Below the pieces are notes generated by a model, which was given only the letters and a program-made list of their open reading frames with translations, was not told the origin of the DNA and did not search any database. From Bacteroidales bacterium (GTDB lineage: Bacteria > Bacteroidota > Bacteroidia > Bacteroidales > ML635J-15): DNA of 64,000 nt. Position numbers and translations under genes: made by a program. The first letter of the stretch is position 1; every line of letters starts with the position of its first letter. This document shows positions 10,228 to 52,804 of this stretch, piece after piece. Where the stretch lies: positions 43,510-107,509 of the forward strand of contig QKHS01000054.1 of assembly GCA_003249955.1 (NCBI GenBank), given 5' to 3'.

Positions 10228-10731
10228 ATGAAACAAATCATAGCCCGGCTGATACAGCAATTATCATTGCAGCCACATCCTGAAGGAGGATACTTTAAAG
10301 AGACTTACCGCAGCGGAGAAGAAATTCCCGAATCGTGTCTTGATACAAAATATATCGGGAAACGCAACTGTTCCACCTGTATTTATTTTATGCTTACATC
10401 CGGTACATTTTCGGCCTTCCACAGAATAAATCAGGACGAAATCTGGCATTTCTATCAGGGCTCTACTGTTAAGTTGTACATGATAAGCCCGTCGGGAGAA
10501 CTTTCAGCAGTTTTAATCGGCAGCGATATCCTGAATGGCGAAGTCCCGCAGTTTATTGTCCCTGCAGGTTATTGGTTTGCGGCAAAAGTAACAGAAGAAG
10601 ATTCATATTCGCTGGTAGGCTGTACTGTTTCGCCGGGATTTGATTTCAGGGATTTTGAGCTGGCGGAAAGAGATAGTTTGTGCAATATGTTCCCGGAGCA
10701 TGATGGTGTTATACGGGATTTTACAAGATAA
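10228..10731 (+). CDS. Cupin-superfamily DUF985 protein
   Basis: LQPHPEGGYFKETYRS near the N-terminus and ...GCTVSPGFDFRDFEL are the hallmark DUF985 pattern. Confidence 0.8.
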   Translation: MKQIIARLIQQLSLQPHPEGGYFKETYRSGEEIPESCLDTKYIGKRNCSTCIYFMLTSGTFSAFHRINQDEIWHFYQGSTVKLYMISPSGELSAVLIGSDILNGEVPQFIVPAGYWFAAKVTEEDSYSLVGCTVSPGFDFRDFELAERDSLCNMFPEHDGVIRDFTR

Positions 10732-10740
10732 AGATTTTTT

Positions 10741-10950
10741 GAAGCCGGAAGCCGGAAGTTGGAAGACCGGAGACGGAAGTTGGCTGACGCATGTTTGTTT
10801 TTAGCAGAGGCGATAGTTAGGGGGGCTTTCTTTAAATTTTTTAAATTCAGGATATTTCAATAAGTGAAAGGAAGAATGTTCAATATCCAACATTCAACAC
10901 TCAATAAAGACGGAAGTCGGAAGATGGCTGGAGCGTGTTTGTTTTTAACC
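10741..10950. repeat. GGAAG-rich dispersed intergenic element (two partial copies)
   Basis: gaagccggaagccggaagttggaagaccggagacggaagttggctgacgcatgtttgttttta and ...aggaagaatgttcaatatccaaca...aataaagacggaagtcggaagatggctggagcgtgtttgttttta. An inverted copy lies at 33061-33140. Confidence 0.8.
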
Positions 10951-10980
10951 GAACATATATTTTTCTTTTCGGAAATTTTC

Positions 10981-11742
10981 TTATCCTCTTACAAAAACCC
11001 ATTTCTCTTTATCAGATAAATCCTGTCTATACTCATATCCGTTATTTCTGAACATTTTCAAATCTTCCTGATTTGTAATCCTGTTTTTAATAATAAAATT
11101 TGTCATTGCTCCGCGTGCATTTTTCGCGTACATAACCACAACTTTGTAACTTCCTTTGTTGAAATCCTTAAAAACCGGAGTAATAAGCTTTGCTTTAAGT
11201 TTACTCTGGTTTACAGACTTAAAGTATTCGTCCGAAGCCAGATTTACCACGAAATCATTTACGGATAAATCTTCATTTAATTTTGCGGTTATTTTATCTC
11301 CCCAAAACTGGTATAGATTTGAAAATTTCTCAATTTTAAGTTTCGTTGCTATTTCCAAACGATGAGGCTGAATGATGTCCAGTGGACGCAGAACCCCGTA
11401 CATTCCCGAAAGAATCCGGAGGTGTGCTTGTGCAAATTCAAAATCATCATCATTCATTCCGGCGGCATTAAGGCCACGAAAAGCTTCGCCGGTATAAGTA
11501 AGTATTGCCTGTTTAGCCTGCACATCTGCCGGATGCCTGTGCAGAGCCTGATACCTGTCAAAACTTAATTCTGCAAGTGCAGGGCTTATGCGCATAAGTT
11601 CTGCAAGATCGCTTGCGGAAAATGTGCTTAGTTTTTTTATAAGTTTTTCGCTTTCAGTCGCGAATTCCGGTTCTGAAATCATATCTGTTATTGCCGGTGA
11701 TTCAAAATTAAGCGTCTTTGCCGGCGATAGGAGTATAAGCAT
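10981..11742 (-). CDS. yaaA: Peroxide stress protein YaaA (UPF0246)
   Basis: MLILLSPAKTLNFE start, 253 aa, with typical YaaA conservation throughout. Confidence 0.85.
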   Translation of the reverse strand: MLILLSPAKTLNFESPAITDMISEPEFATESEKLIKKLSTFSASDLAELMRISPALAELSFDRYQALHRHPADVQAKQAILTYTGEAFRGLNAAGMNDDDFEFAQAHLRILSGMYGVLRPLDIIQPHRLEIATKLKIEKFSNLYQFWGDKITAKLNEDLSVNDFVVNLASDEYFKSVNQSKLKAKLITPVFKDFNKGSYKVVVMYAKNARGAMTNFIIKNRITNQEDLKMFRNNGYEYRQDLSDKEKWVFVRG

Positions 11743-18796: not shown

Positions 18797-19876
18797 ATGA
18801 GCAAAACTTTTAGAGAAAGTCTGAATGTTGTTTTCAGAACAGCAATGTTTATAGTCTGCTTTTTTATTACACTTACAGGTTTTTCCCGGACTTGTTCAAA
18901 CGAAGCCTCTTCAGGAAGATTAAAAGGACTTGACAAGGTCAAAGGCTTTGGTATTATGTATCGTCTTCCGGGAATCTGGAGCGGGCCTGTCATCTCAAAT
19001 ACTTCGGCCGGTAATTTCAATAACTGGTTTGTTGATCTGCGTCCGGTTTCACCAAATCAGATTTCGCAGTTTTCACTTTTAGATGAGAAAACTGTAAATA
19101 ATTTCAGCATTTTTGTTGTAAAATATAATGGAGAAAAAAGAATTGCACTACGCACCGAAGGCTGTTTTGCTAATTCATGCTGCATTACTTATGAGTTGTT
19201 GGATTCTGTAAATGAGTCGGTCGGATATTACCGGTTCAGCGATTTTAAAGGAGGAATCAGCCGTGCTTATACAGAGTTCCGGTTTGGTGACGGACAAATG
19301 ACAATGGAAGTTTACACAAGCAGGTTTAATAAAGAAAAAGAAGTAAAACTCCATACGCGTTGGGAGGCAAAATTGCAGGATAAAGATGCCGCCGCAGATG
19401 CCGTTGTAAAATTCCGGTACCCGGCATATAAAAAAGCAAAAGATTTTACCGGGGCATTTACCGGAATGCCGGAAAGCATTTTCTTTACATTTGAAAATGA
19501 CCCCTATAAATCGGAAGATCAACCATATTGCGGAAGTATAGAAGTTACTGTCTCAAGCTCTCCTGAGATACAACTTAAATCAGAAGATGAGATAGAGATA
19601 TTACTTACTACAGAACCTCTCTTTGACGGGATAAAATACAAAAAAGAAAATCTCGTATTTGCATCAAAATCTGTTTATCTTAAAGGCGATACTAAAAATT
19701 TTACAATAAAAAATGTCCATCCGGGCAAATATTATATTTATGTTTTTGTTGATAGTGACGGAGATAAACTACATTTATCCGGTGAGTATATGTGCTCAGA
19801 AACTAATTATTTGCTGGAAGTTCCTGCAAATGGCAAAGCAGATTATAAAGCATTGATAGATTTTGTTATTCCTTAG
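18797..19876 (+). CDS. Hypothetical exported protein
   Basis: 359-aa ORF with an N-terminal hydrophobic segment. No motif recognised. Confidence 0.45.
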   Translation: MSKTFRESLNVVFRTAMFIVCFFITLTGFSRTCSNEASSGRLKGLDKVKGFGIMYRLPGIWSGPVISNTSAGNFNNWFVDLRPVSPNQISQFSLLDEKTVNNFSIFVVKYNGEKRIALRTEGCFANSCCITYELLDSVNESVGYYRFSDFKGGISRAYTEFRFGDGQMTMEVYTSRFNKEKEVKLHTRWEAKLQDKDAAADAVVKFRYPAYKKAKDFTGAFTGMPESIFFTFENDPYKSEDQPYCGSIEVTVSSSPEIQLKSEDEIEILLTTEPLFDGIKYKKENLVFASKSVYLKGDTKNFTIKNVHPGKYYIYVFVDSDGDKLHLSGEYMCSETNYLLEVPANGKADYKALIDFVIP

Positions 19877-19908
19877 TCAAAAAATCTCAAAAGCTATGAT
19901 TAAAAGCT

Positions 19909-19950
19909 ATTATTAATAATTGCTTAATGTATTAAGCAATTATTAATAAT
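19909..19950. repeat. Perfect 20-bp inverted repeat with a 2-nt loop
   Basis: attattaataattgcttaat-gt-attaagcaattattaataat, located between the stop at 19876 and the promoter of the second AAA ATPase gene. Confidence 0.85.
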
Positions 19951-20041
19951 AATGCTTATTATGAAAAGCAAAATAACATTATAATAATTACTATAATACA
20001 CAAAATGGTAATATAATGTTGTGTGTATTAAACAAAATGAT

Positions 20042-20049
20042 TATATTTG
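20042..20049 (+). promoter_or_regulatory. Bacteroidota -7 box (TAnnTTTG)
   Basis: tatatttg lies 16 nt upstream of the ATG at 20065. The tttgtaaaaa context matches that upstream of 8034. Confidence 0.45.
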
Positions 20050-20064
20050 TAAAAAGAAATCATT

Positions 20065-21258
20065 ATGGAATCTGTTTTAGAAAAGTCGGCTGATAAAATT
20101 AAATCTGTTCAAACTGCATTTGTACGTGGTAATATTGATACGATTGATTGGGAACCAAGACTTCTTGGAATAAAAGGATCTAGAGGTGTCGGAAAAACGA
20201 CATTGTTATTGCAGTATTTAAAGAAAAATTTTAAAAATGATGATTCAGCGGTTTACATAACTCTTGATAATTTGTGGTTTTCGCGAAATCGCCTTGAAGA
20301 TTTTATTGATAAGTTTGTAAAAATGGGAGGAAAGCACCTCTTTATTGATGAAATCCATAAATATCCTGAGTGGGCGCAGATTCTTAAAAACTCCTATGAT
20401 GATTATCCTGAATTAAAAATTGTTTTTACAGGCTCCTCAATGCTGGAGATATTAAATTCCCGTGCCGACTTAAGCCGTAGAGCGGTAGTTTATACTATGC
20501 AGGGGCTTTCTTTTCGTGAATTTCTAAATTTGCATTTAAATTTAAATATTCCGGTTTATTCTCTCGATGATATTTTAAATAATCACCGGCAAATATCAGA
20601 TGAAATACTTAATCTTACCAAACCTTTAAAGTATTTTGAAACTTATTTGAAAACCGGTTACTATCCATTTTATAAGGAATTGCCGACTCATTATTTTTAT
20701 AAGATTGAGGAAGTGATAAACATGATACTTGAAATAGAACTTCCCCTTATGCGGAATCTCGAAATTTCCTATGTGTCAAAACTAAAACAGGTTTTGCAAA
20801 TTATTGCAGAGTCTGTTCCGTTTATTCCAAATGTTTCAAAGCTTAGCGAAAGGATTGGAATAAACCGTAATACATTTTTAAATTATCTGTATTATCTTGC
20901 AGAAGCAAAACTTACTTTAAATGTTTACAAAAATGTCTCCGGCATTACAAAACTGCAAAAGCCTGACAAAATGTATCTTGAAAATACAAATATGATTTAT
21001 GCTCTGGCACCTAAAATGGCGAATGAAGGAAATTTAAGAGAGACTTTTTTTGTTAATCAGCTTGCATATAAAAACAAACTTGAATACACAGATAAGGGAG
21101 ATTTTAGGGTCAATGATATTTTTACATTTGAAGTCGGCGGTAAATCGAAAACAGATCAGCAAATTAAAAATGTGAGCAATTCCTTTATTGTTGCCGATAA
21201 TCTGGAATTTGGATTTGCAAATAAAATACCTTTGTGGCAGTTTGGATTAATGTATTAA
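20065..21258 (+). CDS. AAA+ ATPase (AAA_14) with a DUF4143-type PD-(D/E)xK-like C-terminus; paralog 2
   Basis: IKGSRGVGKTT, LFIDEIHKYP and GDFRVNDIFTFEVGGKSK. 397 aa with a gap-free alignment to 8034..9227. Confidence 0.75.
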   Translation: MESVLEKSADKIKSVQTAFVRGNIDTIDWEPRLLGIKGSRGVGKTTLLLQYLKKNFKNDDSAVYITLDNLWFSRNRLEDFIDKFVKMGGKHLFIDEIHKYPEWAQILKNSYDDYPELKIVFTGSSMLEILNSRADLSRRAVVYTMQGLSFREFLNLHLNLNIPVYSLDDILNNHRQISDEILNLTKPLKYFETYLKTGYYPFYKELPTHYFYKIEEVINMILEIELPLMRNLEISYVSKLKQVLQIIAESVPFIPNVSKLSERIGINRNTFLNYLYYLAEAKLTLNVYKNVSGITKLQKPDKMYLENTNMIYALAPKMANEGNLRETFFVNQLAYKNKLEYTDKGDFRVNDIFTFEVGGKSKTDQQIKNVSNSFIVADNLEFGFANKIPLWQFGLMY

Positions 21259-21284
21259 TTTAAAAAACGTAATTGTTCAGGCTT

Positions 21285-21512
21285 ATGCAAATTGATTTTT
21301 TTCGGTCTTCCTGCAATGTTTTGTTTTATCCCGAAGATTTGGACACATTGTGTATAACTCAATCTAAAATCAGAGAAACCTGTATTCCTCATTACACAAA
21401 TCTACGCGGGAAACCAATTACAAATAAATTTATTACAGAATCAGGTTTTACCATCGATACTGTTATTGTTGATGGTAAGTATTGGCGTATTTTTGTAATT
21501 AGTAAAAATTAG
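21285..21512 (+). CDS. Small hypothetical protein (weak call)
   Basis: Only the ORF itself and its tight packing support this call; it ends 3 nt before the next start. No motif recognised. Confidence 0.25.
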   Translation: MQIDFFRSSCNVLFYPEDLDTLCITQSKIRETCIPHYTNLRGKPITNKFITESGFTIDTVIVDGKYWRIFVISKN

Positions 21513-21515
21513 GTG

Positions 21516-22160
21516 ATGTACAAAGCAGTAATATTTGATATGGACGGAGTTCTGATAAATTCAGAGCCATTGTGGAAGATAGCGGAAAAACATGTGTTTT
21601 CTTCTCTTGGAGTAAAAGTAAGTGACGATTTGGTGCATATTACCTCAGCACTTACAGCTCAGGAAGTTTGTGAATTTTGGTACAGCCGCTATCCGTGGGA
21701 AGGAAAAACTTTTAAGGAAGTTGAAGACGATGTTGTTAACATGGTGATTAAACTTATAGGAGAGAATGATACCAGATTGCCCGGAGTCACAGAAATACTA
21801 AGACTGTTTAAAGAGAAGGATTTTAAAATCGGCCTGGCTTCAAACTCTTCACACAATCTTATTGAGGTTATTCTGGAAAAACTTGAAATAAGATCATATT
21901 TCGATGTGATTTCATCTGCAGATGATGTTGAGAAAGGAAAACCCAATCCTGCAGTATATCTTTATGCAGCAGAGAAACTTGGTGTAAATCCGTCGGGATG
22001 CCTGGTTTTTGAAGATTCAATTGTAGGAATTACTGCTGCAAAAAATGCAGGAATGAAAGTTATTGCTGTCCCGGCAAAAGAGGACTTTGATAAACCGGAA
22101 TTTGAAACGGCAGATTATAAAATAAGATCGCTAAAAGAATTTGACTTAACACTCAGTTAA
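21516..22160 (+). CDS. HAD-IA family sugar-phosphate phosphatase (beta-PGM-like fold)
   Basis: AVIFDMDGVLINSEPLW (DxD), LASNS, KGKPNPAVY and VFEDSIVGITAAKNAGM. Confidence 0.75.
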   Translation: MYKAVIFDMDGVLINSEPLWKIAEKHVFSSLGVKVSDDLVHITSALTAQEVCEFWYSRYPWEGKTFKEVEDDVVNMVIKLIGENDTRLPGVTEILRLFKEKDFKIGLASNSSHNLIEVILEKLEIRSYFDVISSADDVEKGKPNPAVYLYAAEKLGVNPSGCLVFEDSIVGITAAKNAGMKVIAVPAKEDFDKPEFETADYKIRSLKEFDLTLS

Positions 22161-22194
22161 TACTATAAATTTATTTTTGACGTTTAAAAAAGCT

Positions 22195-22815
22195 ATGAAA
22201 AATAATATTTTTATAATACTGATTTTAGGAGCAGTACTTTACTCTTGTAAAGATCATCCGGTAGAGATTGCCAGATTTGAACTTGGTGAAGCCGAGCAAA
22301 ATCTTGTGCCTTATCATTCAGGTCAGCAAATTGATTTTATCCATTCCAACGGCTATGAATTTACTTTTAACGTAACGCAAGAAAGTCTGGAATGGTTTAA
22401 ACATTTTGATTTTTGTGAATGGGGCTGCCGCAATCAGGAATATTTCTCGTATCAGGTAAAAACTGTTATTATGGAATCAGACTATCCGGTTCTTAGTTTA
22501 AGATTTTGCGTAGGTGGTGATGCCTGGCAGGAATACTATGATAATGTTCTGAATTTTGACATAAACCAACGTCATTTTATTAGTATGCCATACAATTCGC
22601 AGGCAGAATTTATATGCGACACTTTAACCGGCATTGTTGTTTATGATACTGTGTTGATAGGAACTACAGAATACTACAATGTTTATGAAAAAGCATTTGA
22701 CAGCAGTTTTTTTATTGATTCAACCAATATGGCTCCAAAATCTATACTTTATAATTCTCAGGGTTTATTACAAATTAAAATGAGCAACGATGAAACATAT
22801 TCAGTTAAGAATTAA
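22195..22815 (+). CDS. Lipoprotein, unknown function
   Basis: MKNNIFIILILGAVLYSCKD lipobox. Confidence 0.5.
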   Translation: MKNNIFIILILGAVLYSCKDHPVEIARFELGEAEQNLVPYHSGQQIDFIHSNGYEFTFNVTQESLEWFKHFDFCEWGCRNQEYFSYQVKTVIMESDYPVLSLRFCVGGDAWQEYYDNVLNFDINQRHFISMPYNSQAEFICDTLTGIVVYDTVLIGTTEYYNVYEKAFDSSFFIDSTNMAPKSILYNSQGLLQIKMSNDETYSVKN

Positions 22816-23395
22816 TATTCTTGTATTTTCTTTTGTGGCTTCAGTTTTGATTTTTTCGTCATGTGGCGACTACCTTGAAGGTACATATAAGATTAGCGGA
22901 GAAGCTTTAAAATACAAAACAGACACTACTGTTTTCTCGTTTCAGATGATTGATAGTTACGGAATTACAGAGGAGTTTTATATGGATACACATACCTGGT
23001 ACGTGACACATGATTATTTTAGCGAGTGGGGAGAAAAGGCCTTTTACGAAACATTCGGGATTGCTTATGGCTCTGTAGTAAATGATTATTTTTTTATGTT
23101 TGTTATGCGGGCTCAGGAAACCTCAACAGAGCTTGAAGTAGAATGGAATCAGAAAGACTTAATGAGCTATGATTTTGGAACCCGGGTGATGGAATTTGAG
23201 CCGGGAGGGATGAATATTTCTTTTTACGATACTTTACAGGTAAGGGGAGTTACTTATCATGACATAATTGAAATAGATTATTCTGCATCCCGTAACGAAA
23301 TAGATAAAAACACCCCTGTAAAAACATGGATTGCCGGGAAGGAAGGATTAATAAAATTTGAAAGAAAAGACGGCGTAGTGTCGGAAAGATTATAA
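22790..23395 (+). CDS. Lipoprotein, unknown function
   Basis: LIFSSCGD lipobox. Overlaps the upstream gene by 26 nt. Confidence 0.5.
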   Translation: MKHIQLRINILVFSFVASVLIFSSCGDYLEGTYKISGEALKYKTDTTVFSFQMIDSYGITEEFYMDTHTWYVTHDYFSEWGEKAFYETFGIAYGSVVNDYFFMFVMRAQETSTELEVEWNQKDLMSYDFGTRVMEFEPGGMNISFYDTLQVRGVTYHDIIEIDYSASRNEIDKNTPVKTWIAGKEGLIKFERKDGVVSERL

Positions 23396-23431
23396 AATCT
23401 TAACCGGATAATTATTTGTTGCCGGAATTTT

Positions 23432-23439
23432 TAACTTTG
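23432..23439 (+). promoter_or_regulatory. Bacteroidota -7 box (TAnnTTTG)
   Basis: taactttg lies 29 nt upstream of the TTG start at 23468. Confidence 0.35.
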
Positions 23440-23467
23440 CAAAGTATTAAATAATTATCCGGTAATT

Positions 23468-25663
23468 TTGACAGAAATACTTCTTATAACGCCGCCATTT
23501 ACCCAGCTAAATACTCCGTACCCTGCAACGGCTTATCTTAAGGGATTTCTTAACTATAAGAATGTTAATTCAGTTCAGGCCGATCTGGGGCTTGAGGTTA
23601 TTCTGGACTTATTTTCAAAAACCGGCTTACAAAAAGCATTTGATTTTGCTTTTAACAGTAAAAGCATTTCTGATAAAAATTCAAAAAAAATTTACAATAA
23701 CAAAGAAAGGTATTTGAGAGTTATTGAAGATCTTGTAAGCTTTTTGCAGGGCAATCGAATGTCTATTACAGATAAAATCTGCAGCAGAAGATATTTACCC
23801 GAAGCTTCCAGATTTAATCAGCTTGAGGATATGAGCCTGGCATTCGACGAAACAGATTCTGCCGGATTTGCAAAGTATATGGCAACTCTGTGTCTGGAAG
23901 ACTTGTCTGACTTTATAGTCAATTGTGTCGATTCCGATTTCGGATTCAGCAGATATGCCGAAAAAATCGGGCGGAGTGCAAACTCATTTGATGACCTTAG
24001 TGACCGGCTTTCCGGTACAAAATCATATATTGATGAAATCAGCCTGAGAATACTGAACGAAAAAATTAATTCTGAAAAACCGGAAATTATATGCTTTTCC
24101 GTTCCCTTTCCGGGTAATTTATATTCGGCATTTCGTTGTGCACAAATGATAAAATCAAAATATCCCGGAATAAAAACCATAATGGGTGGAGGATTTCCTA
24201 ATACAGAATTGCGTTCGGTTTCAGATTCGCGGGTTTTTGATTATTTCGATTTTATTTGTCTTGACGACGGAGAACTTCCGTTGGAACTTATATATAATCA
24301 TTTGAAAAACCCATGCCCGCCGGATTCTGTAAAGTTAAAGCGCACATTTCTGAGAGAAAACGGCAGTGTCTTTTACAATAATCTTTCTGAAAAATCAGAT
24401 TATCCGTTAACGGAAACAGGTTGTCCCGACTACTCAGGCTTGCTGCCTGACAAATATATTTCGGTTACAGAAACAGCAAACCCCATGCATAGTTTGTGGA
24501 GCGACGGCAGGTGGAATAAGCTGACAATGGCTCATGGCTGTTATTGGGGTAAATGCAGTTTTTGTGACACTTCTTTAAGTTATATAAAACATTATAAGCC
24601 CGTTCCGGCAAAAATGCTGGCCGACAGAATGGAAATTCTGATAAGCCAAACTGGAGAAACAGGATTTCACTTTGTAGATGAGGCAGCTCCGCCAAATTTA
24701 ATGCGCGATCTTGCAATTGAAATAATTAAAAGAAAATTACAGGTAACATGGTGGACAAACGTGCGTTTTGAAAAAAACTTTAGTTTCAGCCTCTGTCAGT
24801 TATTGAGAAGATCCGGCTGCATAGCAGTGGCCGGCGGACTCGAAGTCGCATCTGACAGGCTACTTGAACGTATAAACAAAGGAGTTACTGTAGAACAGGT
24901 TGCACAGGTAACATCAAATTTTACCGATGCCGGAATCATGGTTCATGCATATCTTATGTATGCATTTCCCGGACAAACCGTTCAGGAAACTGTTGACAGT
25001 CTCGAAATGGTGAGACAACTTTTTGAACTGGATTTGATTCAGTCCGGGTTTTGGCATCAGTTTGCACTTACAACCCATAGTGAAGTCGGCAGAAATCCTG
25101 AAAAATACGGTATAGTTACATATAAAAAAGAAATCACATTTGCCGATAATGATGTCGAATTTGTTGACAGTACCGGCATAGATCACAGTAAGTTTAGCTT
25201 TGGGCTTAAAAAATCCCTGTTTAATTTTATGCATGGAACCGGTTTTGATCTTAAGTTGCAGGAATGGTTTAATTTTAAAATCCCCGAAACCACAATAAAA
25301 CCGGATTATATATCGAAATGTGTTGAATCTTCAGACCGGTTTCAGGTTAATCCTAAAGCCTGGATAGTCTGGATAGGAGATATGCCGGATGTTGAATATC
25401 AAAGCAGGATAAAACGCGGAAAGGTTTTGCAAACAGTAAAAATGTCATTTAGCAATGAGTTTGAAGATTTTGCAATTTCTGTCGAAAAAGAAACCGGCGA
25501 ATGGCTTCTGGATTTACTTCATAAAGCCTCTGTATTTATCGAGAAACAAATTTCATATCAAGCTGCCAAAGCTGATTTTGAAAGCAGGTTCTCTGATTTT
25601 GAACTTTTTTGGTTTTCAGGACCGGTAAGTAAGTTGCGCGAAAATGGTTTGCTCTTACTTTAA
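23468..25663 (+). CDS. B12-binding-domain-type radical SAM protein (731 aa)
   Basis: The N-terminal MTEILLITPPF...PYPATAYLKGFL is typical of B12-binding radical SAM enzymes. The cluster motif is MAHGCYWGKCSFCD (nt 24539-24565), followed by GFHFVDEA and GGLEVASDRLL. Confidence 0.75.
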   Translation: MTEILLITPPFTQLNTPYPATAYLKGFLNYKNVNSVQADLGLEVILDLFSKTGLQKAFDFAFNSKSISDKNSKKIYNNKERYLRVIEDLVSFLQGNRMSITDKICSRRYLPEASRFNQLEDMSLAFDETDSAGFAKYMATLCLEDLSDFIVNCVDSDFGFSRYAEKIGRSANSFDDLSDRLSGTKSYIDEISLRILNEKINSEKPEIICFSVPFPGNLYSAFRCAQMIKSKYPGIKTIMGGGFPNTELRSVSDSRVFDYFDFICLDDGELPLELIYNHLKNPCPPDSVKLKRTFLRENGSVFYNNLSEKSDYPLTETGCPDYSGLLPDKYISVTETANPMHSLWSDGRWNKLTMAHGCYWGKCSFCDTSLSYIKHYKPVPAKMLADRMEILISQTGETGFHFVDEAAPPNLMRDLAIEIIKRKLQVTWWTNVRFEKNFSFSLCQLLRRSGCIAVAGGLEVASDRLLERINKGVTVEQVAQVTSNFTDAGIMVHAYLMYAFPGQTVQETVDSLEMVRQLFELDLIQSGFWHQFALTTHSEVGRNPEKYGIVTYKKEITFADNDVEFVDSTGIDHSKFSFGLKKSLFNFMHGTGFDLKLQEWFNFKIPETTIKPDYISKCVESSDRFQVNPKAWIVWIGDMPDVEYQSRIKRGKVLQTVKMSFSNEFEDFAISVEKETGEWLLDLLHKASVFIEKQISYQAAKADFESRFSDFELFWFSGPVSKLRENGLLLL

Positions 25664-25974
25664 TGTTACTCACGGACAAGCTTTTTGGGTTAGCTCTTAA
25701 AAGTTCCGGTGCTTAGTAATTATTAGCCACAAAAGCACAAAAAAAGACAAATCCCTTTAGTGTCTTAGTGGCAACAAAAATAGAATAGCATAATATTGAT
25801 AAAAAAGTAGCCACGAAAGCACGAAAGCACGAAAAAAAGTAAACCCTTTAGTGTTTTAGTGTCTTAGTGCCTTCGTGGCAAAAAAAAAGAGAGCGAAAAC
25901 TCTGTGGCAATGTAAAAAAATTAGGTCGCTTCAAAAACACGAAGAGGAGGGATAACAAATAATAAATTACAGTG

Positions 25975-26043
25975 CCTTCGGCTACGCTCAGTCACCTGAG
26001 TATCCGTTGACTGAGCGTAGCCCGTTCTGAGCGTAGTCGAAGG
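25975..26043 (+). repeat. Alternative-hairpin element, copy 1 (L-M-R)
   Basis: L is ccttcggctacgctcagtca, M is tgactgagcgtagcc and R is ctgagcgtagtcgaagg. L is complementary to both M and R. Confidence 0.85.
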
Positions 26044-26423
26044 CAACATTAGAAATGAAATTAAGTGGCCACAAAAGCACGAAAGCACAAAAAAAAGGAA
26101 TTAGCCTTTAGTGTTTTAGTGTCTTAGTGGCAACAAAAATAGAATAGCATAATATTGATAAAAAAGTAGCCACGAAATCACGAAATCACGAAAAAAAGTA
26201 AACCCTTTAGTGTTTTAGTGTATTAGTGGCAAAAAATAAAACAGTTAATGGGAATAAAGTTTAATGGCCACAAAAGCACGAAAGCACAAAAAAAGGAATT
26301 AGCCTTTAGTGTTTTAGTGCCTTCGTGGCAAAAAAAAGAGAGCGAAAACTCTGTGGCAATGTAAAAAAATTAGGTCGCTTCAAAAACACGAAGAGGAGGG
26401 ATAACAAATAATAAATTACAGTG

Positions 26424-26494
26424 CCTTTGGTTACGCTCAGTCACCTGAGTATCCGTTGACTGAGCGTAGCCCGTTGATTGAGCGTAGTCGAAGG
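26424..26494 (+). repeat. Alternative-hairpin element, copy 2 (L-M-R)
   Basis: Same architecture as copy 1. The L arm reads cctttggttacgctcagtca, with two C>T changes relative to copy 1. Confidence 0.85.
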
Positions 26495-27339
26495 CAACAT
26501 TAGAAATGAAATTAAGTGGCCACAAAAGCACGAAAGCACAAAAAAAAGGAATTAGCCTTTAGTGTTTTAGTGTCTTAGTGGCAACAAAAAGATAATAGCA
26601 TAATATTGATAAAAAAAGTGGCCACGAAATCACGAAATCACGAAAAAAAAGAATCAGCCTTTAGTGTTTTAGTGTCTTAGTGGCAAAAAATAAAACAGTT
26701 AATGGGAATAAAGTTTAATGGTCACAAAAGCACGAAAGCACAAAAAAGGAATCTCACTTTAGTGTTTTAGTGTTTTGGTGGCAAATAAAAGAGAGCGAAA
26801 ACCAGGTAAATAAAAAAAATTAAATAGCCACGAAAGCACGAAAGCACAAAAAAGGAATCTCACTTTAGTGTTTTAGTGTTTTGGTGGCAAATAAAAGAGA
26901 GCGAAAACCAGGTAAATAAAAAAATTAAATAGCCACGAAAGCACGAAGACACAAAAAAAGGGAAAAACCCTTTAGTGTTTTAGTGTGTTAGTGGTAACAT
27001 AAAAATTGGAATAAGAATAAAAATTTATTAGCCATGAAAGCACGAAGACACAAAAAAAGGGAAAACCCTTTAGTGTTTTAGTGTGTTAGTGGCAACATAA
27101 AATTGGAATAAGAATAAAAAATTTATTAGCCACGAAAGCACGAAGACACAAAAAAAGAAAGCCCACTTAGTGCCTTTGCATCTTGGTGGCAAAAAAAGAA
27201 TCTCCTTGCTTAACTAATACAGATTAAGATATAGTTGTTGATAAATAGTTGAATTTCAACCAATTGGCTTGCAATTAATTGCTAAATTTGTACAAACCGT
27301 ATGAAATCTTCTTATATTAACCATATAAATCTATTAATC

Positions 27340-28674
27340 ATGAAAAGAATTATATTATTATTCCCGGCATTGCTTGTTGTATTTTTATCAATTGCTCAGG
27401 ATTATCAGTTGGTTTTTCATGCACAGGGTATTGCCACGCAAATTGATAGTGTTGAAATTGAAAATATTAACCAGAATAAAAGCCTGACAATTTACGGGCA
27501 GGATATTTTACATTTGTCAGGAACGGTTGGAATTAATAATCCGGAAATTTCAGACAAAGAATTATTTATATATCCGAACCCGGCAACAGAATCAGTTTCA
27601 TTGCAGTTCTGTTCAGAAAAGCAGGAAACAGCAAAACTGGAGCTGTTTGATATGTCAGGGAAACTGATTTTCTCTCAAAGCACGGAAATAAATCAGGGAC
27701 AGAATGCTTTCAGGCTTTCCGGCTTTGGCAACGGGAATTATATTGTCAGTTTGTGTTCCGAAACATTTAGATACACAAAGACTTTTGTGTCTGTGTCAAA
27801 CGGGAACAATCAATTAAGGCTTGAGCAAGAGAATTCATCTTCAGATATTGAAAATCGAAAAAAATATGAAGCTGAATCCAAGTCGGTGATTAGTTGGCAA
27901 TATAATGATGGAGATATCCTGATATTTAAAGCATTTGCTGACGGTAATTCCAGAATTTTAGTGTATTACATTGTTGCGGATGCAGACTTGTATTTTGATT
28001 TTGTGTTGTGTCAGGATATAGATGGGTATAAATATCCTGTTACAAATATAGGGTCAAAAACATTTATGGCAGAGAATCTTCATGCTTCAAGGTATAATAA
28101 TAATTCACCTGTTCCGAATGTTACAGACAATACCGAATGGCTAAATCTTGTCAGCGGAGCCAGATGTTATTATAATAATGATAGCGCGGGCTATTCACAA
28201 ACTTACGGAGCTTTATATAATTTTGAAGCAGTGAATTCCGGAGTATTATGTCCCCACGGCTGGCATGTTGCAACTCAGTCTGACTGGGAGCAATTACTTG
28301 TTTATCTGCAAAACAACGGGTATAATTATGACGGGTCATCTGATCCGGATACTGATCCAGGTACTAATGATAAAACGGCAAAGTCGCTTACAAAAGCTAC
28401 GAACTGGATGTCTTCTACAGAAGTTGGAGCTCCCGGTAATAATGATTTCCCGGCATTCCGTAACAGGACAGGTTTTTTCGGGATAGCAGCGGGTATGCGT
28501 GGTGTGTCCGGCAGCACGACAAATATTAGTATTATCGCTGCCTGGTGGTCTTCCACTTCAACAAATACAAATACTGCAGCCCGTTTGGCTATTCAATACG
28601 ATCTGGCCAATAGTGTAATAAGTTATAGTGCAGATAAAAAGTTCGGATTTTCTGTACGCTGTGTTAAGGATTAG
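27340..28674 (+). CDS. FISUMP (Fibrobacter succinogenes major paralogous domain) protein with an internal T9SS-CTD-like domain
   Basis: C-terminal FMAENL...YGALYNFEAV...LCPHGWHVATQSDWEQL...FGFSVRCVKD. Residues ~87-165 (nt 27559-27795) read FIYPNPATESVSLQF...GNYIVSL...TKTFVSV. The probable start is MKRIILLF at 27340. Confidence 0.75.
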   Translation: MKRIILLFPALLVVFLSIAQDYQLVFHAQGIATQIDSVEIENINQNKSLTIYGQDILHLSGTVGINNPEISDKELFIYPNPATESVSLQFCSEKQETAKLELFDMSGKLIFSQSTEINQGQNAFRLSGFGNGNYIVSLCSETFRYTKTFVSVSNGNNQLRLEQENSSSDIENRKKYEAESKSVISWQYNDGDILIFKAFADGNSRILVYYIVADADLYFDFVLCQDIDGYKYPVTNIGSKTFMAENLHASRYNNNSPVPNVTDNTEWLNLVSGARCYYNNDSAGYSQTYGALYNFEAVNSGVLCPHGWHVATQSDWEQLLVYLQNNGYNYDGSSDPDTDPGTNDKTAKSLTKATNWMSSTEVGAPGNNDFPAFRNRTGFFGIAAGMRGVSGSTTNISIIAAWWSSTSTNTNTAARLAIQYDLANSVISYSADKKFGFSVRCVKD

Positions 28675-38743: not shown

Positions 38744-39880
38744 ATGATGAAATTAGAAGATTCACATATCGAATCATTAAAAGCTGAAACAGAGGAATCA
38801 TACTCTAATGATGACTTATATAATATTGGCTCATATGGAGCTGATTTGTCGTTTCGTGAATTAATATCGATGTATGAGGAAGATGAATTATTGAAACCGG
38901 AATTGCAAAGACATTATGTTTGGGAAAAGCCTGAAGCAAGTCGATTTATTGACTCTTTACTTTTGGGATTACCTGTTCCAAGTATTTTTCTTGCCAATAC
39001 AAAAGATGAAAAGAAATTAATAATAGACGGTTACCAAAGAATAATGACCGTTTTTGATTTTGTTAAAGGGATTTGGTCAAAGGATAGAAAAGTTTTTAAA
39101 CTATCTAATACAGAAAAGATTAATGAACGTTGGAGAGGAAAAGCTTTTTCTGAACTAAGCGACACTGAACAAAGAAAAATCAGAAGTACAACAATACATG
39201 CTATAATCTTTGAACAAAAATCTCCAAAAGATGATGATACAAGCTTGTTTCAAGTATTTGAGAGAATCAATACTAGCGGTAGAACATTAATGCCTCAAGA
39301 AATTAGAAATTGTGTTTACCAAGGTGATTTTAACACATCCCTTTTCAAATTAAATAAAAATTCAGATTGGAGAATATTGTTTGGTGCTAGTGAAGAAGAT
39401 TCAAGAATGAGAGATTTAGAGTTCATTCTTAGATTTTTAGCAATGGACACTGAATATATTAGAACTAAAGCAAAAGGGAAAATTCAGTTGAAAAAATATT
39501 TAAATGAATTTATGGGCGCAGATAATTCTCAAAAAGCCCAAATACTGCAAGAAAGGGAGAATACATTTATAAATGTCATGGGATTTATTCATAAAAATAT
39601 TGGGGAAAATGCATTTTATAATATTCAAAAGGATGACCCAAACAAAATTAGAAAACGCTTTTACCCCACAATATTTGATGCTTTAACTGTTGCAGTGGCT
39701 ATCGGACTTAGAAAAAAAGGGAACTCATTAAATAAATATGACTTGGAATCAAAAAGAATACAATTGTTACAGGATGAAAAATTTAGAACTTATTCGACAG
39801 AAGGTACTACGGAAATAGAACATATTCACGGTAGAATTAATTTATCACTAAAATATTTATTTAATATTGATAATGAATAA
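38744..39880 (+). CDS. DUF262 (ParB/GmrSD-N-terminal-like) domain protein
   Basis: LQRHYVWEKPEASRFIDSLLLGLPVPSIFL and IIDGYQRIMT (a DGQQR-type motif). I saw no DUF1524/HNH signature in the C-terminal half. Confidence 0.8.
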   Translation: MMKLEDSHIESLKAETEESYSNDDLYNIGSYGADLSFRELISMYEEDELLKPELQRHYVWEKPEASRFIDSLLLGLPVPSIFLANTKDEKKLIIDGYQRIMTVFDFVKGIWSKDRKVFKLSNTEKINERWRGKAFSELSDTEQRKIRSTTIHAIIFEQKSPKDDDTSLFQVFERINTSGRTLMPQEIRNCVYQGDFNTSLFKLNKNSDWRILFGASEEDSRMRDLEFILRFLAMDTEYIRTKAKGKIQLKKYLNEFMGADNSQKAQILQERENTFINVMGFIHKNIGENAFYNIQKDDPNKIRKRFYPTIFDALTVAVAIGLRKKGNSLNKYDLESKRIQLLQDEKFRTYSTEGTTEIEHIHGRINLSLKYLFNIDNE

Positions 39881-40376
39881 TTCAAGTGCAAGAGAAGTTA
39901 TTGATGGTTGCAACACCGAACTTGAGAAAATTCATCATATTATTCAAGGAATGGGTCCAACAAGCCATCCTGTGCCATATTTGACAAAATATGCAATTAT
40001 AAAAGCATGTGGTACAATAGAATATTGTTTCAAAACTATACTATCAGATACTTGTGCCAATATACAATCTCCTCAGATTAGGAATTTCATTGATAATACT
40101 TTTAGGAATAGTTCCATGAATCCAAACAGGGATAATATTTCTAAAGCATTAAAGCAATTCGATGAAGAATGGAATACTAGATTTAAAAATAAAATAAATG
40201 AGTTGGAATATAAAGAACAGATTCTAGATTCATTAAAATCATTGAACGATGCAAGAAATGCCTTTGCTCATGGAGGAAATCCATCTTCTTCATTTGATAA
40301 CATTTGTAATTATTTCAAAGACTCTTTAAAAATTATAGAAATCATTGATGAAATTGTAAATAATGGAAATGAATAA
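39873..40376 (+). CDS. HEPN-domain protein (MAE_28990/MAE_18760-like)
   Basis: LNDARNAFAHGG is the Rx4H HEPN motif, set in a predicted all-helical ~167-aa protein. The ATG at 39873 overlaps the DUF262 stop (39878-39880). Confidence 0.65.
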   Translation: MNNSSAREVIDGCNTELEKIHHIIQGMGPTSHPVPYLTKYAIIKACGTIEYCFKTILSDTCANIQSPQIRNFIDNTFRNSSMNPNRDNISKALKQFDEEWNTRFKNKINELEYKEQILDSLKSLNDARNAFAHGGNPSSSFDNICNYFKDSLKIIEIIDEIVNNGNE

Positions 40377-40546
40377 AAACACACAACGAAAAGTATGTAC
40401 AAAATAATCGTAGTATTAGTAATTTCAACTGTTGTAGCTCGTTTCAAAATCTTAACGGTTTGATAAGTTTGATGTACTCAATCGCTTCTTTGCATATACT
40501 TTTTGTTGTGTGTAATTAAAAAAATAAAATCTACAAAATTGACCTC

Positions 40547-41986
40547 GTGAATCACTTTAAAACAGAGAGAAAAGCCATATACGATACTGCTGGAATATTT
40601 ACGAAGTTTGGATGGATATTTCGCGAACAGCCAATTGTCGATATTGGAATTGATGCATTGGTCGAAACTCCAATTGATGAAAATGGTAAGATTAAAATAT
40701 TCGGTCTCCAAATAAAAGGAGGAGAGGCTAACTTTCAAAAAAAGGAAATATTTATAACATTTTATTTTTCAGAAAGACATTATTTGTATTGGAATGCAAT
40801 CTGTGAGAATTACCCTTTGTTTATTGTCCTTCAAGACCCCTCAAACGACAGAATATATTGGCAATATTATTCTTTTGAAAAAATCGCAAAAACACCTAAG
40901 AATTATAAGATAAATATTCCATACAGCAATATATTAGACATAAATTCAAAAGAAGAAATATTAGATATTATTAATGGAAATTATTCTTTGGGTTTTTTAG
41001 ATCATATTCTTGAATCGGATTTCGATTTACTTCAGAATCAGAATCACAAAATGAATATTTCATACAAATTAAACACCGAAAACAAAGGTGAAATTCAAAT
41101 ATGTTTACAATATAAAAAACAAAAGGCATCTCTGGATTTGGATTACATACCAAAGAAAAATCATTGGAGCATTGAAAAATCATTTTTGACATGGGAGAAT
41201 GTATATTACTATTCACTAGTAAATTTTGAAAAATATATTATCAATCAATTTGAATCAAAAAACAGACGATCGCTTAAAAAATTAGTAACTGAACTTAATT
41301 TCATTGTTCAAGGAAAAATTGAAAATATTGCAGAGTTTATTTTTGATTTTAGCAATAAAGGAAGTAAAGTCCCTAAATATGCTGAGTTTATCCAAGCTTT
41401 TGAACAACATAGCAAACTCAACAAGACTCATTATGAGGCATGTGCTTTTGACTTTAGTATTCATTTTAAAACAAGCAAGGGAACTTATGAAGTAAGTACA
41501 TATGAAAGTCTTTCTGAATGCTTGAACTATTATTTTCAAAATGGCAGTTATGACGAAATATATACTGAAACAAACGAGAATATATGGAAAGAGATTTATA
41601 TAGACCAAGGTATAGAAAAATCTAAGTTTATCCCGGTAATGCAAAATGAATGGGAACATTACTGGACAAGATTATATGATAAAATAAGAAAAGAAATTGG
41701 AAGGACAGAACATCTGAATGACAAAAAAGAAGAATCTTGGAAGAGGTTTATATTATTTGTTAATTTGTTTAATGATGCCGATAACGCAATTGAGCTGGCT
41801 TTTGATTTTGATGATATGGTTTTATATCCAATGGCAGTTATAACAATGTTGAGAATTTTCGATTTAGAAACCTGTTTCGACGAATATTGTGAATACGAAT
41901 TTTATGAAATAAACAATTGGGAAAGTATTGATATTTATAATAATATGGATTCATCCTTATTTTATATCAGATCCCTTGAATTTTAA
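40547..41986 (+). CDS. DUF4365 (PD-(D/E)xK restriction-endonuclease-like) N-terminal domain fused to a ~340-aa unassigned C-terminal region
   Basis: ERKAIYDTAGIFTKFGWIFREQPIVDIGIDALVE...IFGLQIKGG matches the DUF4365 D-GID...E..QxK pattern. GTG start. Confidence 0.65.
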   Translation: MNHFKTERKAIYDTAGIFTKFGWIFREQPIVDIGIDALVETPIDENGKIKIFGLQIKGGEANFQKKEIFITFYFSERHYLYWNAICENYPLFIVLQDPSNDRIYWQYYSFEKIAKTPKNYKINIPYSNILDINSKEEILDIINGNYSLGFLDHILESDFDLLQNQNHKMNISYKLNTENKGEIQICLQYKKQKASLDLDYIPKKNHWSIEKSFLTWENVYYYSLVNFEKYIINQFESKNRRSLKKLVTELNFIVQGKIENIAEFIFDFSNKGSKVPKYAEFIQAFEQHSKLNKTHYEACAFDFSIHFKTSKGTYEVSTYESLSECLNYYFQNGSYDEIYTETNENIWKEIYIDQGIEKSKFIPVMQNEWEHYWTRLYDKIRKEIGRTEHLNDKKEESWKRFILFVNLFNDADNAIELAFDFDDMVLYPMAVITMLRIFDLETCFDEYCEYEFYEINNWESIDIYNNMDSSLFYIRSLEF

Positions 41987-51014: not shown

Positions 51015-51021
51015 AGCCGAA

Positions 51022-51139: not shown

Positions 51140-51219
51140 GTGAATTTAATCTTTACGATTTCCGAAAGATTATGTTTTGCCCTGAAGGATTATTGTATAA
51201 TTTTAAATGTAAGGGTAAA

Positions 51220-51889: not shown

Positions 51890-52804
51890 GCCACGAAAGC
51901 ACGAAATTACGAAAAAAGAAAAATCCTTTTAGTGTCTTAGTGTTTTAGTGGCGATAAAGATAAAACTGTTATTGGAAATAAAGTTTAATAGCCACGAAAG
52001 CACGAAATCACAAAAAAAAGTAAACCCTTTAGTGTTTTGGTGTCTTAGTGGCAAAAAAAAGAGAATAGCAAAATATTGACAAAAAAAGTAGCCACAAAAG
52101 CACGAAAGCACAAAAAAAAGAAAAACTCATTTAGTGTCTTAGTGTTTTAGTGGCGATAAAGATAAAACTGTTATTGGAAATAAAGTTTAATAGCCACAAA
52201 AGCACGAAGGCACGAAAAAAAGAAAAAACCTTTTAGTGTCTTAGTGTTTTAGTGGCGATAAAGATAAAACTGTTAATGGAAATAAAGTTTAATAGCCACG
52301 AAAGCACGAAATCACAAAAAAAAAGTAAACTCACTTAGTGTCTTGGTGTTTTAGTGGCAATAAAGAACTTAGTAAAATTAATTAGGCACGAAAGCACAAC
52401 CACGAAGTGCTCAGCATAGCTAAAAGCACAAAAAAAGAATCCCATTTAGTGTTTTAGTGTCTTAGTGGCAGCAAAAAGAGAATATATAATATTGATAAAA
52501 AAAGTAGCCACGAAAGCACGAAGTCACGAAAAAAGAAAAATCCTTATCACGAAAAAAAGTAAACCCTTTAGTGTTTTGGTGTCTTAGTGGCAAAAAAAAG
52601 AGAATAACATAATATTGATAAAAAAAGTAGCCACAAAAGCACGAAAGCACGAAAAAAAGAAAAACTCATTTAGTGTCTTGGTGTTTTAGTGGCAATAAAG
52701 AACTTAGTAAAATTAATTAGCCACGAAAGCACAACCACGAAGTGCTCAGCGTAGCTAAAAGCACAAAAAAAGAATCCCATTTAGTGTTTTAGTGTCTTAG
52801 TGGC
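51890..52804. repeat. Tandem array B: 9 hairpin units of the same family and orientation as array A
   Basis: Units start at 51890, 51991, 52091, 52193, 52295, 52385, 52507, 52630 and 52720. Units 52385 and 52720 carry the insertion aaccacgaagtgctcagc(a/g)tagctaaaagcac. Confidence 0.9.

Follow-up and report, generated by a model that had tools for sequence, protein, structure and literature searches.

What are the hairpins that fill 1.5 kb behind a radical SAM gene in a member of the Bacteroidales, and how did they come to be there? The window analysed here, 64,000 nt of contig QKHS01000054.1 (positions 43,510 to 107,509; assembly GCA_003249955.1), contains two tandem arrays of short imperfect palindromes, the first of which had been described in a first-pass annotation that could not assign it to any repeat or RNA family. 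That statement stands in so far as we found no Rfam match and no published description, but it can now be revised, as the arms of these hairpins are the ends of an element that carries a GxxExxY gene. We conclude that each unit in the window probably derives from a small, selfish palindromic element, as a miniature that lacks the gene and was amplified by duplication. More tentatively, the hairpins may be the non-autonomous form of an unrecognised cross-phylum class of mobile palindromes, which would be propagated through the action of the GxxExxY nuclease on the arms of its own element, folded as a hairpin or cruciform, in the manner of a REPtron (a repetitive extragenic palindromic (REP) sequence with its transposase) but with a different enzyme.

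Two arrays of hairpins built from 8-nt repeats

Array 1 is flanked by the radical SAM gene (stop at 25663) and a Fib_succ_major gene (start at 27301); its units, 47-70 nt in length, are all in a single orientation. The nine units of array 2 follow ribB (stop at 51858) and are bounded downstream by a convergent SprB/CHU_C gene (52859-57241, minus strand). The unit counts of 12 and 9 are as assembled, an independent assembly (L001) covering array 1 only to 13 nt past unit 1. The arms are runs of an 8-nt repeat, CAC-N-AAA-N, closed by a GCCAC/GTGGC clamp, which gives GCCAC-GAAAG-CAC-GAAAG-CAC on the left and GTG-TTTTA-GTG-TCTTA-GTGGC on the right. This periodicity is peculiar to the arrays: CAC-N5-CAC-N5-CAC occurs 16 times in the window and its complement 20 times, every one within the two arrays, and the remaining 60 kb contain neither, where shuffles lead one to expect 0.04 and 0.22 occurrences.

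Successive units are separated by spacers of 25-44 nt, and on the plus strand A-runs are found on both sides of the array 1 units. All units end in GCCAC...GTGGC apart from those with GTCAC (unit 8), GTGGT (unit 10), GCCAT (unit 11) and GGCAC (unit 18). Between 25680 and 27300 there is no open reading frame (ORF) of 60 aa or more, and only three of 40-55 aa, all on the minus strand. The earlier description of array 1, as an ORF-free region of twelve co-oriented units flanked by A-tracts and with three clamp variants in the units at 26721, 26932 and 27031, is thus accurate.

Complete elements carry a GxxExxY gene between the arms

In complete copies found in other genomes, two arms of this kind bracket one GxxExxY gene of ~130 aa, and the whole element measures ~450 nt. 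The left arm has the form GCCAC-(CAC-N-AAA/AAG-N)x2-4, with an A-run and a Shine-Dalgarno (SD)-like AAGGA at its inner end, and the right arm consists of inverted octamers ending in GTGGC. Such elements occupy short intergenic spacers in the sense orientation, in many cases with a stop codon on one side and the following start codon on the other. At locus L163 the order is left arm GCCACCAAGGCACTAAGACACGAAGG, 6 nt, ATG, a 130-aa ORF, TGA, 2 nt and right arm TTAGTGTCTTGGTGTCTTAGTGGC, the ORF being a GxxExxY protein (TIGR04256, E=6.9e-39; Pfam PF13366, PDDEXK_3). The same architecture is found at L208 and L229; by another reckoning, 12 nt separate the left arm from the ATG at L163 and L208, and 8 nt separate the stop from the right arm. 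Of the features by which we would recognise a member of the proposed GxxExxY palindromic element, the window units show the clamps and the 2-4 inverted CAC-N5 octamers per arm, but no gene between the arms.

The association also holds when it is approached from the protein. Fetching GxxExxY loci by protein identity alone gave six distinct loci (L243, L253/L255, L262, L272, L277 and L278), all six with family arms or flanking hairpins. In these loci the GxxExxY gene is always co-oriented with its upstream neighbour, and the inner end of the left arm supplies an SD-like AAGGAGG or AAAGGAA. L243 reads stop codon, 14 nt, GCCACTAAGACACAAAGGCACAAAGGaggaatATG ... TAAtccTTAGTGTCTTAGTGCCTTTGTGGC, 11 nt, and the ATG of the next gene; L262, L272 and L277 are Bacteroidales-type, and L278, labelled Nitrospinota, has a GxxExxY gene with whole hairpins on each side. 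Divergent GxxExxY genes (35-49% identity) at L005 and L241 are accompanied by a different arm type, CACAGAGG ... CCTCTGTG, in which the GCCAC/GTGGC logic is kept; the gene at L005 lies 1.3 kb from hairpins and carries its own CACAGAGG-type arms. Judged from the loci compared, arm type varies with GxxExxY protein subfamily.

We know of no cleavage activity or target for a GxxExxY protein. Across 44 homologues, D74, E84 and K86 are invariant or nearly so, as is the GxxExxY motif, and these three residues make up the PD...(D/E)XK triad, located in LDVLVE..IICELK. The AlphaFold2 model (mean predicted local distance difference test score, pLDDT, 92.7) has as its best fold matches in the PDB Cas4 SSO0001, lambda exonuclease, splicing endonucleases and other PD-(D/E)XK nucleases, and from the triad and the model the nuclease looks active. 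Searches with GxxExxY found no match by sequence in the PDB and none in PADLOC or PHROGs. One seed protein alone has more than 6,700 close homologues. The only survey that we found on the family, by Steczkiewicz et al. (2012), listed the function of PDDEXK_3 as unknown and described multiple transfers of the family between bacterial divisions (PMC3424549).

A deletion series links complete elements to bare hairpins

Several loci are intermediate between complete elements and bare hairpins. In about a dozen metagenome loci the right arm directly follows the ORF end ...LINFN...GI(K/Q)RII and its stop codon, and in about ten metagenome loci only short N- and/or C-terminal remnants have been kept, for example ...GIKRIIL and a stop before the right arm. 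L011 has kept its arms, with the N-terminal ~20 codons fused in frame to GIKRFVL and a stop; L175 is a further deletion derivative and L144 a disrupted or nested copy. Comparison of L253 with L255 reveals one extra tandem gene-less copy, which has a ...GIKRIIL-stop remnant and the same 13-nt flank, so that on these two contigs tandem duplication of the element followed by deletion is seen directly. The hairpins flanking the gene at L278 have loops (AAAATTATTCTTTA) that resemble the 3' end of the GxxExxY gene. Because the series is graded, from full elements through remnants to bare arms, we interpret bare hairpins as the decay end point of gene-carrying elements.

The window units can be tied to this series directly. 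A hidden Markov model (HMM) built from the window's right arms only matches the arms that follow GxxExxY genes at L229 (8e-5) and L163 (1e-4) in 1.74 Mb of sequence, and in the same 1.74 Mb it matches L243, a locus fetched by its protein (E=5e-4). When the ORF is removed from L277, window units align with what is left from end to end, agreeing at 18-19 of 21 positions in the left arm and 21-22 of 25 in the right, and this alignment takes in the A-run and AGG that in L277 precede the ATG. The GAATCAGC of unit 7 aligns with the GGAATCAGC codons (G-I-S) near the end of the L277 ORF. The asymmetry of this collinearity therefore identifies the plus strand as the element's gene-sense strand, which is also the sense of the upstream radical SAM and ribB genes. 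Since there is no GxxExxY ORF in the window, the units are classed as gene-less derivatives and not as full members.

The hairpins form a dispersed family that crosses phyla

We scanned one genome per species (596 Gb, both strands) with the left-arm pattern GCCACRAAAKCACRAARNCAC and obtained at least 117 genome loci, where ~17 chance matches are expected by our own arithmetic, assuming uniform base composition over the 596 Gb and both strands. Loci selected by their arms are biased by the search patterns used; nevertheless, the family extends beyond chance, because 50 of the at least 117 loci, among those listed, pair with a complementary right arm no more than 110 nt away. Hosts include many orders of Bacteroidota, Balneolales, Acidobacteriota (64-69% GC) and Planctomycetota, among them the cultured Neolewinella antarctica and Tangfeifania diversioriginum, and by way of the GxxExxY loci the family was also found on contigs labelled Desulfobacterota or Nitrospinota. 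Acidobacteriota have several hairpin copies per metagenome-assembled genome (MAG), and the AT-rich arms persist in these GC-rich hosts. The right-arm pattern had at least 120 matches on metagenome contigs, many of them at contig ends, and an exact 25-mer of the window right arm had 0 matches in metagenomes. Among viral contigs there was one arm match and no GxxExxY relative, and plasmids gave three weak arm matches.

Copies are intergenic and lie mostly between co-oriented genes, and in high-GC genomes the distance is often 3-11 nt from the preceding stop codon and 6-40 nt to the following start. Their loops vary in length from 8 to more than 200 nt and accept other modules; the spacing between arms, gene-carrying copies included, ranges from 8 to more than 400 nt. 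An all-against-all BLAST of ORFs from the 117 loci listed revealed no recurrent neighbour gene beyond ABC ATPases, short-chain dehydrogenases/reductases (SDRs), dehydrogenases and housekeeping genes. Nor did we find long-range partner arms enclosing an insertion sequence (IS), spans of 1-2 kb proving to be separate hairpins around housekeeping genes. Arrays are found elsewhere, with six units at L028. In two Balneolaceae genomes the sdhA-sdhB spacer is filled by an identical 54-nt family hairpin (L088, 3069-3122; L090, 6909-6962), and from this identity it follows that some copies have been retained across species.

Two variations on the arms were also seen. At L010, L083 and L104, one-armed runs of CAC-N5 octamers occur in the sense orientation right after stop codons, with the inverted partner absent nearby or ~200 nt off. 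At L033, L076, L145, L149, L165, L169 and L185, a G+C-rich hairpin module, CCTGCC...GGCAGG or CCCGCCCGCC...GGCGGGCAGG, stands between arm octamers, an arrangement which suggests nested palindromic insertions.

The arrays grew by duplication and are particular to this lineage

Array 1 contains four segmental duplications (25880-26066 with 26330-26517, 26068-26230 with 26519-26684, 26721-26826 with 26827-26931, and 26932-27030 with 27031-27128). Their identities of 97.3, 94.0, 97.2 and 96.0% confirm the earlier proposal that the array had grown in this way, from these same four pairs of segments, and Tandem Repeats Finder (TRF) reports periods of 449, 106 and 98-99 in the array. The spacers fall into five recurring classes, of which two, types A and B, are common to both arrays, and two-unit blocks of array 1 and array 2 are 84-87% identical. 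As the arrays are 25 kb apart and share these spacer types at that level of identity, units together with their spacers must have been copied blockwise between the loci. Coordinates of the arrays, units and inserts are listed in Table 1.

Table 1. Hairpin arrays of the window, their units and inserts
Feature	Coordinates	Strand	Description
Array 1	25726..27190	+	12 hairpin units, spacers and two 188-nt inserts
Unit 1	25726..25772	+	47 nt; shortened copy, inner octamers degenerate; also in independent assembly L001
Unit 2	25810..25879	+	70 nt; 3 left and 4 right octamers, the outer one fully complementary (GTGCCTTCGTGGC)
188-nt insert, copy 1	25880..26067	+	perfect 15-bp hairpin at 25980-26022; SD-like CACGAAGAGGAGG
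Unit 3	26068..26131	+	64 nt; loop AAAAAAAAGGAATTAGCC
Unit 4	26169..26230	+	62 nt; left octamers CACGAAAT
Unit 5	26267..26329	+	63 nt; complementary outer right octamer (CCTTCGTGGC)
188-nt insert, copy 2	26330..26518	+	97% identity to copy 1; hairpin at 26429-26471
Unit 6	26519..26582	+	64 nt; same sequence as unit 3
Unit 7	26621..26684	+	64 nt; loop GAATCAGC, corresponding to GGAATCAGC codons near the 3' end of the L277 GxxExxY ORF
Unit 8	26721..26782	+	62 nt; clamp variant GTCAC
Unit 9	26827..26888	+	62 nt; most stable fold, -27.5 kcal/mol
Unit 10	26932..26995	+	64 nt; clamp variant GTGGT (26991-26995)
Unit 11	27031..27093	+	63 nt; clamp variant GCCAT (27031)
Unit 12	27129..27190	+	62 nt; right arm degenerate; z only -1.45
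Array 2	51890..52804	+	nine hairpin units, orientation as array 1
Unit 13	51890..51952	+	
Unit 14	51991..52052	+	
Unit 15	52091..52154	+	
Unit 16	52193..52256	+	
Unit 17	52295..52358	+	
Unit 18	52385..52469	+	85 nt; left clamp GGCAC; extra 21-nt module (CCACGAAGTGCTCAGCATAGC) within left arm
Unit 19	52507..52591	+	85 nt; inner part duplicated
Unit 20	52630..52693	+	
Unit 21	52720..52804	+	85 nt; extra module as in unit 18

The hairpin in the two 188-nt inserts is in both copies a perfect stem of 15 bp (GGCTACGCTCAGTCA / TGACTGAGCGTAGCC) with a z of -4.5. An 11-mer related to it is found inside units 18 and 21 of array 2, and of the 279 loci fetched just one contains the insert motif CTGAGCGTAGC.

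An independent short-read assembly, L001, from another run or sample, is identical to window positions 19850-25785 and ends 13 nt past unit 1. The junction between the radical SAM gene and the array is thus real, since L001 reproduces both the junction and unit 1 exactly. A syntenic relative, L121, which has the same gene order and a radical SAM protein 77% identical in amino acid sequence, is without the array in the corresponding spacer, and the arms were found nowhere in 53 kb of relatives' contigs; on the contigs compared, the array is lineage-specific. In L121 the spacer after the radical SAM gene (10584-11470) is occupied by an unrelated 239-aa ORF on the minus strand without a Pfam match. 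After this ORF the last ~60 nt of the radical SAM gene are present a second time, which looks like an insertion footprint.

The units fold well but show no signature of selection as RNA

All 12 units of array 1 fold below their own shuffles, with mean z values of -4.4 (plus strand) and -3.4 (minus strand). The first-pass annotation described arms that pair with recurrent mismatches, and G.U wobbles that pair only in a plus-sense RNA. The mismatches are confirmed: in an alignment of 16 regular units 83.8% of the cells in the arms are paired, and at stem positions 6 and 14 pairing fails in 15/15 and 14/15 distinct units, the mismatches being G.A, A.A or G.G. Selection in a plus-sense RNA is not borne out by covariation, for which the 16 regular window units score 0.058 against a shuffled mean of 0.059. 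In 50 external copies, pairing at variable stem positions was likewise 0.44-0.68, compared with 0.50-0.61 when arms of different copies were combined. Conservation extends to the sequence of each arm and to their inverted arrangement, but not to individual base pairs. Nor is there a sense bias in other genomes, where G.U and A.C pairs number 23 and 21 on naive ORF calls; among high-GC loci with ORFs filtered by GC content at third codon positions (GC3), 7 of 10 copies were antisense, a small sample.

Folding the units on both strands gave only a slight asymmetry. The plus strand does better on average (mean minimum free energy -20.3 compared with -17.5 kcal/mol) and is the more stable in 7 of 12 units, but the minus strand wins in the other 5. 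Against the proposal that the units resemble terminators for leftward transcription, a consensus terminator scan flagged no whole unit on either strand, its calls being confined to the apical mini-stems of units 10 and 11, where both strands were flagged; on the plus strand the units are followed by A-runs, with no U-tract after the stem. Promoter-like sites over the array are at chance level. With Rfam 15 at gathering score, the flavin mononucleotide (FMN) riboswitch was the only match in the window; nothing credible appeared over the array at E<=10, and in 27 other loci nothing at gathering score overlaps hairpins or full elements.

Weighing the explanations

Several considerations weigh against our interpretation of the units as derivatives of a GxxExxY element. 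The protein-fetched loci are 62-100% identical to two seed proteins and so form a non-random sample of PF13366, there is no GxxExxY ORF in the 64-kb window, and none of the ~320 kb of hairpin-bearing Acidobacteriota loci contains a GxxExxY gene. The fold matches of the protein, although consistently to PD-(D/E)XK enzymes, are weak (E ~0.02, template modelling (TM) score 0.56). The argument from loop remnants (GGAATTAGC, GAATCAGC) concerns stretches of 8-12 nt, and the copies in question arose from one another by duplication. The interpretation does not account for the 8-nt periodicity, for the constant purine-purine mismatches of this lineage or for the persistence of AT-rich arms in GC-rich Acidobacteriota. 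Finally, we found neither a target-site duplication nor a clean occupied/empty pair for any full element, and its mobility is accordingly put forward here as a proposal.

The strongest rival makes the hairpins an element in its own right, whether selfish or belonging to the host (operon-punctuating palindromes would be an example), with GxxExxY cassettes homing into the loops; the window units would then never have borne a gene. Most copies do indeed lack the ORF, there are Acidobacteriota loci with hairpins but without a GxxExxY gene, and the loops take other modules, whether G+C-rich hairpins (L033, L145, L149) or long loops (L008, L063). However, a cassette that homes into a pre-existing loop would not readily explain why the inner end of the left arm is the ribosome-binding site of the gene, at a fixed 6-12 nt from the ATG, why the type of arm sequence follows the protein subfamily, why graded deletion derivatives with coding remnants join the full and bare forms, or why the loops in the window align in the same order with the inner ends of the full element, and we think this rival unlikely. 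A cis-element that the host keeps for a role, be it an array of sites for a DNA- or RNA-binding protein, a terminator or an mRNA stabiliser, would suit the conservation of sequence rather than pairing across phyla and the location of copies at gene ends and between cistrons, including the sdhA/sdhB copy conserved in two Balneolaceae. Yet the range of arm spacings, from 8 to more than 400 nt, would be intolerable for a duplex binding site, the stem lacks a U-tract and no whole unit is called a terminator, we found no conserved neighbour gene, positions are not kept in the syntenic relative, and none of these roles would call for arrays of 9-12 copies; this we regard as improbable.

For plus-sense structured RNAs selected for their fold, either as an array of small RNAs or sponges or as a cis-regulatory element of 3' untranslated regions, one could cite stabilities well below those of shuffles (mean z -4.4), the G.U pairs that make the plus strand slightly more stable, and the co-orientation of the units with their upstream genes. 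The structured-RNA option left open in the first-pass annotation is nonetheless hard to sustain given no Rfam match at either threshold, covariation at the shuffled level in the window and none in the 50 external copies, 5 of 12 units more stable on the minus strand, no sense bias in other genomes, promoter-like sites at chance and a syntenic relative without the array. By these comparisons the array is not a structured-RNA array, and we give the idea a low probability. The suggestion of a REP or bacterial interspersed mosaic element (BIME) came closest as regards behaviour, the units being dispersed extragenic palindromes, sometimes clustered, imperfect and with strand-specific mismatches. 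GTAG or GTGG precedes 8 of the 21 units, and Quentin et al. (2018) reported REP-like structures of an atypical kind close to Y1 genes of Bacteroidetes, Planctomycetes and Acidobacteria (PMC6006769). For a classical REP/BIME mobilised by a REP-associated tyrosine transposase (RAYT; TnpA_REP, Y1 HUH), however, the GT[AG]G foot is missing from 13 of 21 units, which have ATAG, TTAG, ATGG or GCAG instead, and external copies have no consensus there. The search for a RAYT/IS200-like gene, which the first-pass annotation had proposed, yielded no Y1_Tnp or other transposase Pfam match among window ORFs of at least 120 aa or among recurrent neighbours elsewhere. The gene between the arms encodes a PD-(D/E)XK protein and not an HUH enzyme, REPs are species-specific (PMC6006769) whereas this arm core is found in at least four phyla, and the arm sequences do not occur in the supplements of that paper, all of which makes the classical system very unlikely. 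An assembly artefact, finally, might be suspected from the end of the independent short-read assembly 13 nt past unit 1 and from the many metagenome matches at contig ends, but another sample gave exactly the same junction and unit 1, two arrays at separate loci have diverged units and an ordered higher-order structure, and other genomes also hold arrays (six units at L028), such that this explanation is hardly credible. Each of these last four explanations fails one direct test or more.

A model for the origin and spread of the units

Returning to the GxxExxY element as the source of the units, we propose that internal deletion would drop the nuclease gene and leave an arm-loop-arm hairpin, and that such hairpins with their 25-44-nt spacers would then be amplified by tandem and segmental duplication into the arrays of 12 and 9 behind the radical SAM gene and ribB. 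The GxxExxY nuclease may act on the arms, in the form of a hairpin, a cruciform or an empty site, and thereby promote copying, spread or retention of the element; gene-less copies could be mobilised by GxxExxY in trans, or they may be inert relics. Where units are transcribed they would form stems of 21-29 bp in the 3' part of the upstream mRNA. Pairing of the arms in mRNA would bring the flanking stop and start codons together, which may lower the cost of insertion into an operon. The stem may also be a substrate for an RNase III-type enzyme, as in rRNA intervening sequences (PMC4990558), in which case any effect on mRNA stability or processing would be a by-product.

The significance of tying GxxExxY to a GCCAC...GTGGC hairpin is that the function of the protein becomes testable with one protein and one 60-nt substrate. 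TIGR04256 / PF13366 has thousands of uncharacterised members, for which, if the model is true, this would be a first function, and the genome-resident palindromes of the REP/RAYT type would gain a second class of enzyme. It would also explain frequent contig breaks in assemblies of environmental Bacteroidota, Acidobacteriota and Desulfobacterota, and account for the conserved AT-rich hairpins inside operons of Acidobacteriota with 65-69% GC. In practical terms, the 1.5 kb in the window is probably repeat debris and not a structured-RNA gene. We found no published description of the arms, or of a link between GxxExxY and inverted repeats, in the literature searched, which takes in few subscription journals; the arm sequences, searched for as text, occurred in no paper, and the REP literature and its supplements were likewise without them.

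Other features of the window

The FMN riboswitch (RF00050, 117 bits) lies at 51020-51141, upstream of ribB (51172-51858, DHBP synthase). Between 48990 and 49769 there are two overlapping tandem repeats, one with a period of 219 nt and one of 277 nt, each in roughly two copies with 88-89% matches, the consensus of which reads like small Cys-rich, zinc-ribbon-like ORFs; the adjoining ORF (48513-48962) is without a Pfam match. A likely defence islet at 38744-41986 comprises GmrSD_N (38744-39880), HEPN RiboL-PSP (39867-40376) and DUF4365 (40547-41986) genes, and GC content falls to 0.28 at 40-42 kb. The Por_Secre_tail domain, a sorting signal of the type IX secretion system (T9SS), is normally C-terminal; in the Fib_succ_major proteins encoded at 27301-28674 and 44557-48144 it is near the N-terminus, at residues ~90-163, and the relative L121 has the same order of Fib_succ_major and Por_Secre_tail domains. 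Paralogous ATPase genes with AAA_14 and DUF4143 domains (8034-9227 and 20065-21258) lie on the same strand, 12 kb apart.

Comparison with known systems

Some familiar repeat systems can be set aside. A CRISPR array does not match units of 47-70 nt in array 1 with spacers in five recurring classes, and the window ORFs that were scanned contain no cas domain. Integron attC sites have RYYYAAC...GTTRRRY core sites where the units end in GCCAC...GTGGC. A type III toxin-antitoxin repeat does not fit the genes downstream, which encode a Fib_succ_major/T9SS protein and a convergent SprB-repeat protein and no endoribonuclease toxin. Sigma-54 or ECF (extracytoplasmic function) promoters, a parS-like site, repeat binding of the CsrA or HutP type, a K-turn and MuA-type end sites were dropped without support.

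The REPtron, that is REP, BIME or REPIN sequences together with their RAYT, resembles the present system in its many short, imperfect palindromes outside genes, which occur singly or in clusters and often between cistrons or just after stop codons, and in having one small nuclease-type gene flanked by the same palindromes, an arrangement seen here at L278. In both, bare copies far outnumber the gene. The enzyme here, however, has a PD-(D/E)XK fold in place of the Y1 HUH transposase, the arms consist of 8-nt repeats and a GT[AG]G guide tetranucleotide is lacking. As a rule the gene sits inside one hairpin (arm-gene-arm) and not between separate REPs, and the sequence is shared across phyla where REPs are species-specific (PMC6006769).

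The intervening sequences (IVS) of 23S rRNA in Coxiella and Leptospira, which carry an S23p four-helix-bundle ORF, also have terminal inverted repeats, a stem of ~28 bp and a small ORF in the loop, and they too are regarded as selfish, horizontally spread and subject to ORF decay. In RNA, their stem is an RNase III substrate (PMC4990558). They differ in that all copies seen here lie between protein-coding genes and not in helix 25 or 45, in the family of the ORF and in the tandem arrays found here, for which processing by RNase III would be a matter of analogy. Free-standing homing-endonuclease genes and those of the PD-(D/E)XK recombination-promoting nucleases (Rpn / PDDEXK_2) are, we take it, comparable as small selfish nuclease genes in the sense orientation between conserved genes; homing genes, however, have to our knowledge no long inverted-repeat arms and leave no hairpin relics.

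Miniature inverted-repeat transposable elements (MITEs) derived from IS elements have a DDE transposase behind them, whereas the parent here is ~450 nt long with a 130-aa PD-(D/E)XK gene only, and no consistent direct repeats, as a target-site duplication would leave, flank the copies. Like the hairpins, MITEs are intergenic, can nest and break assemblies, and they arise as non-autonomous copies by internal deletion of a gene-carrying parent, the terminal inverted repeats being kept. The same relation is found here, as the full elements at L163, L229, L243, L272 and L277 share their inverted repeats with the derivatives at L011, L175 and the second copy of L253.

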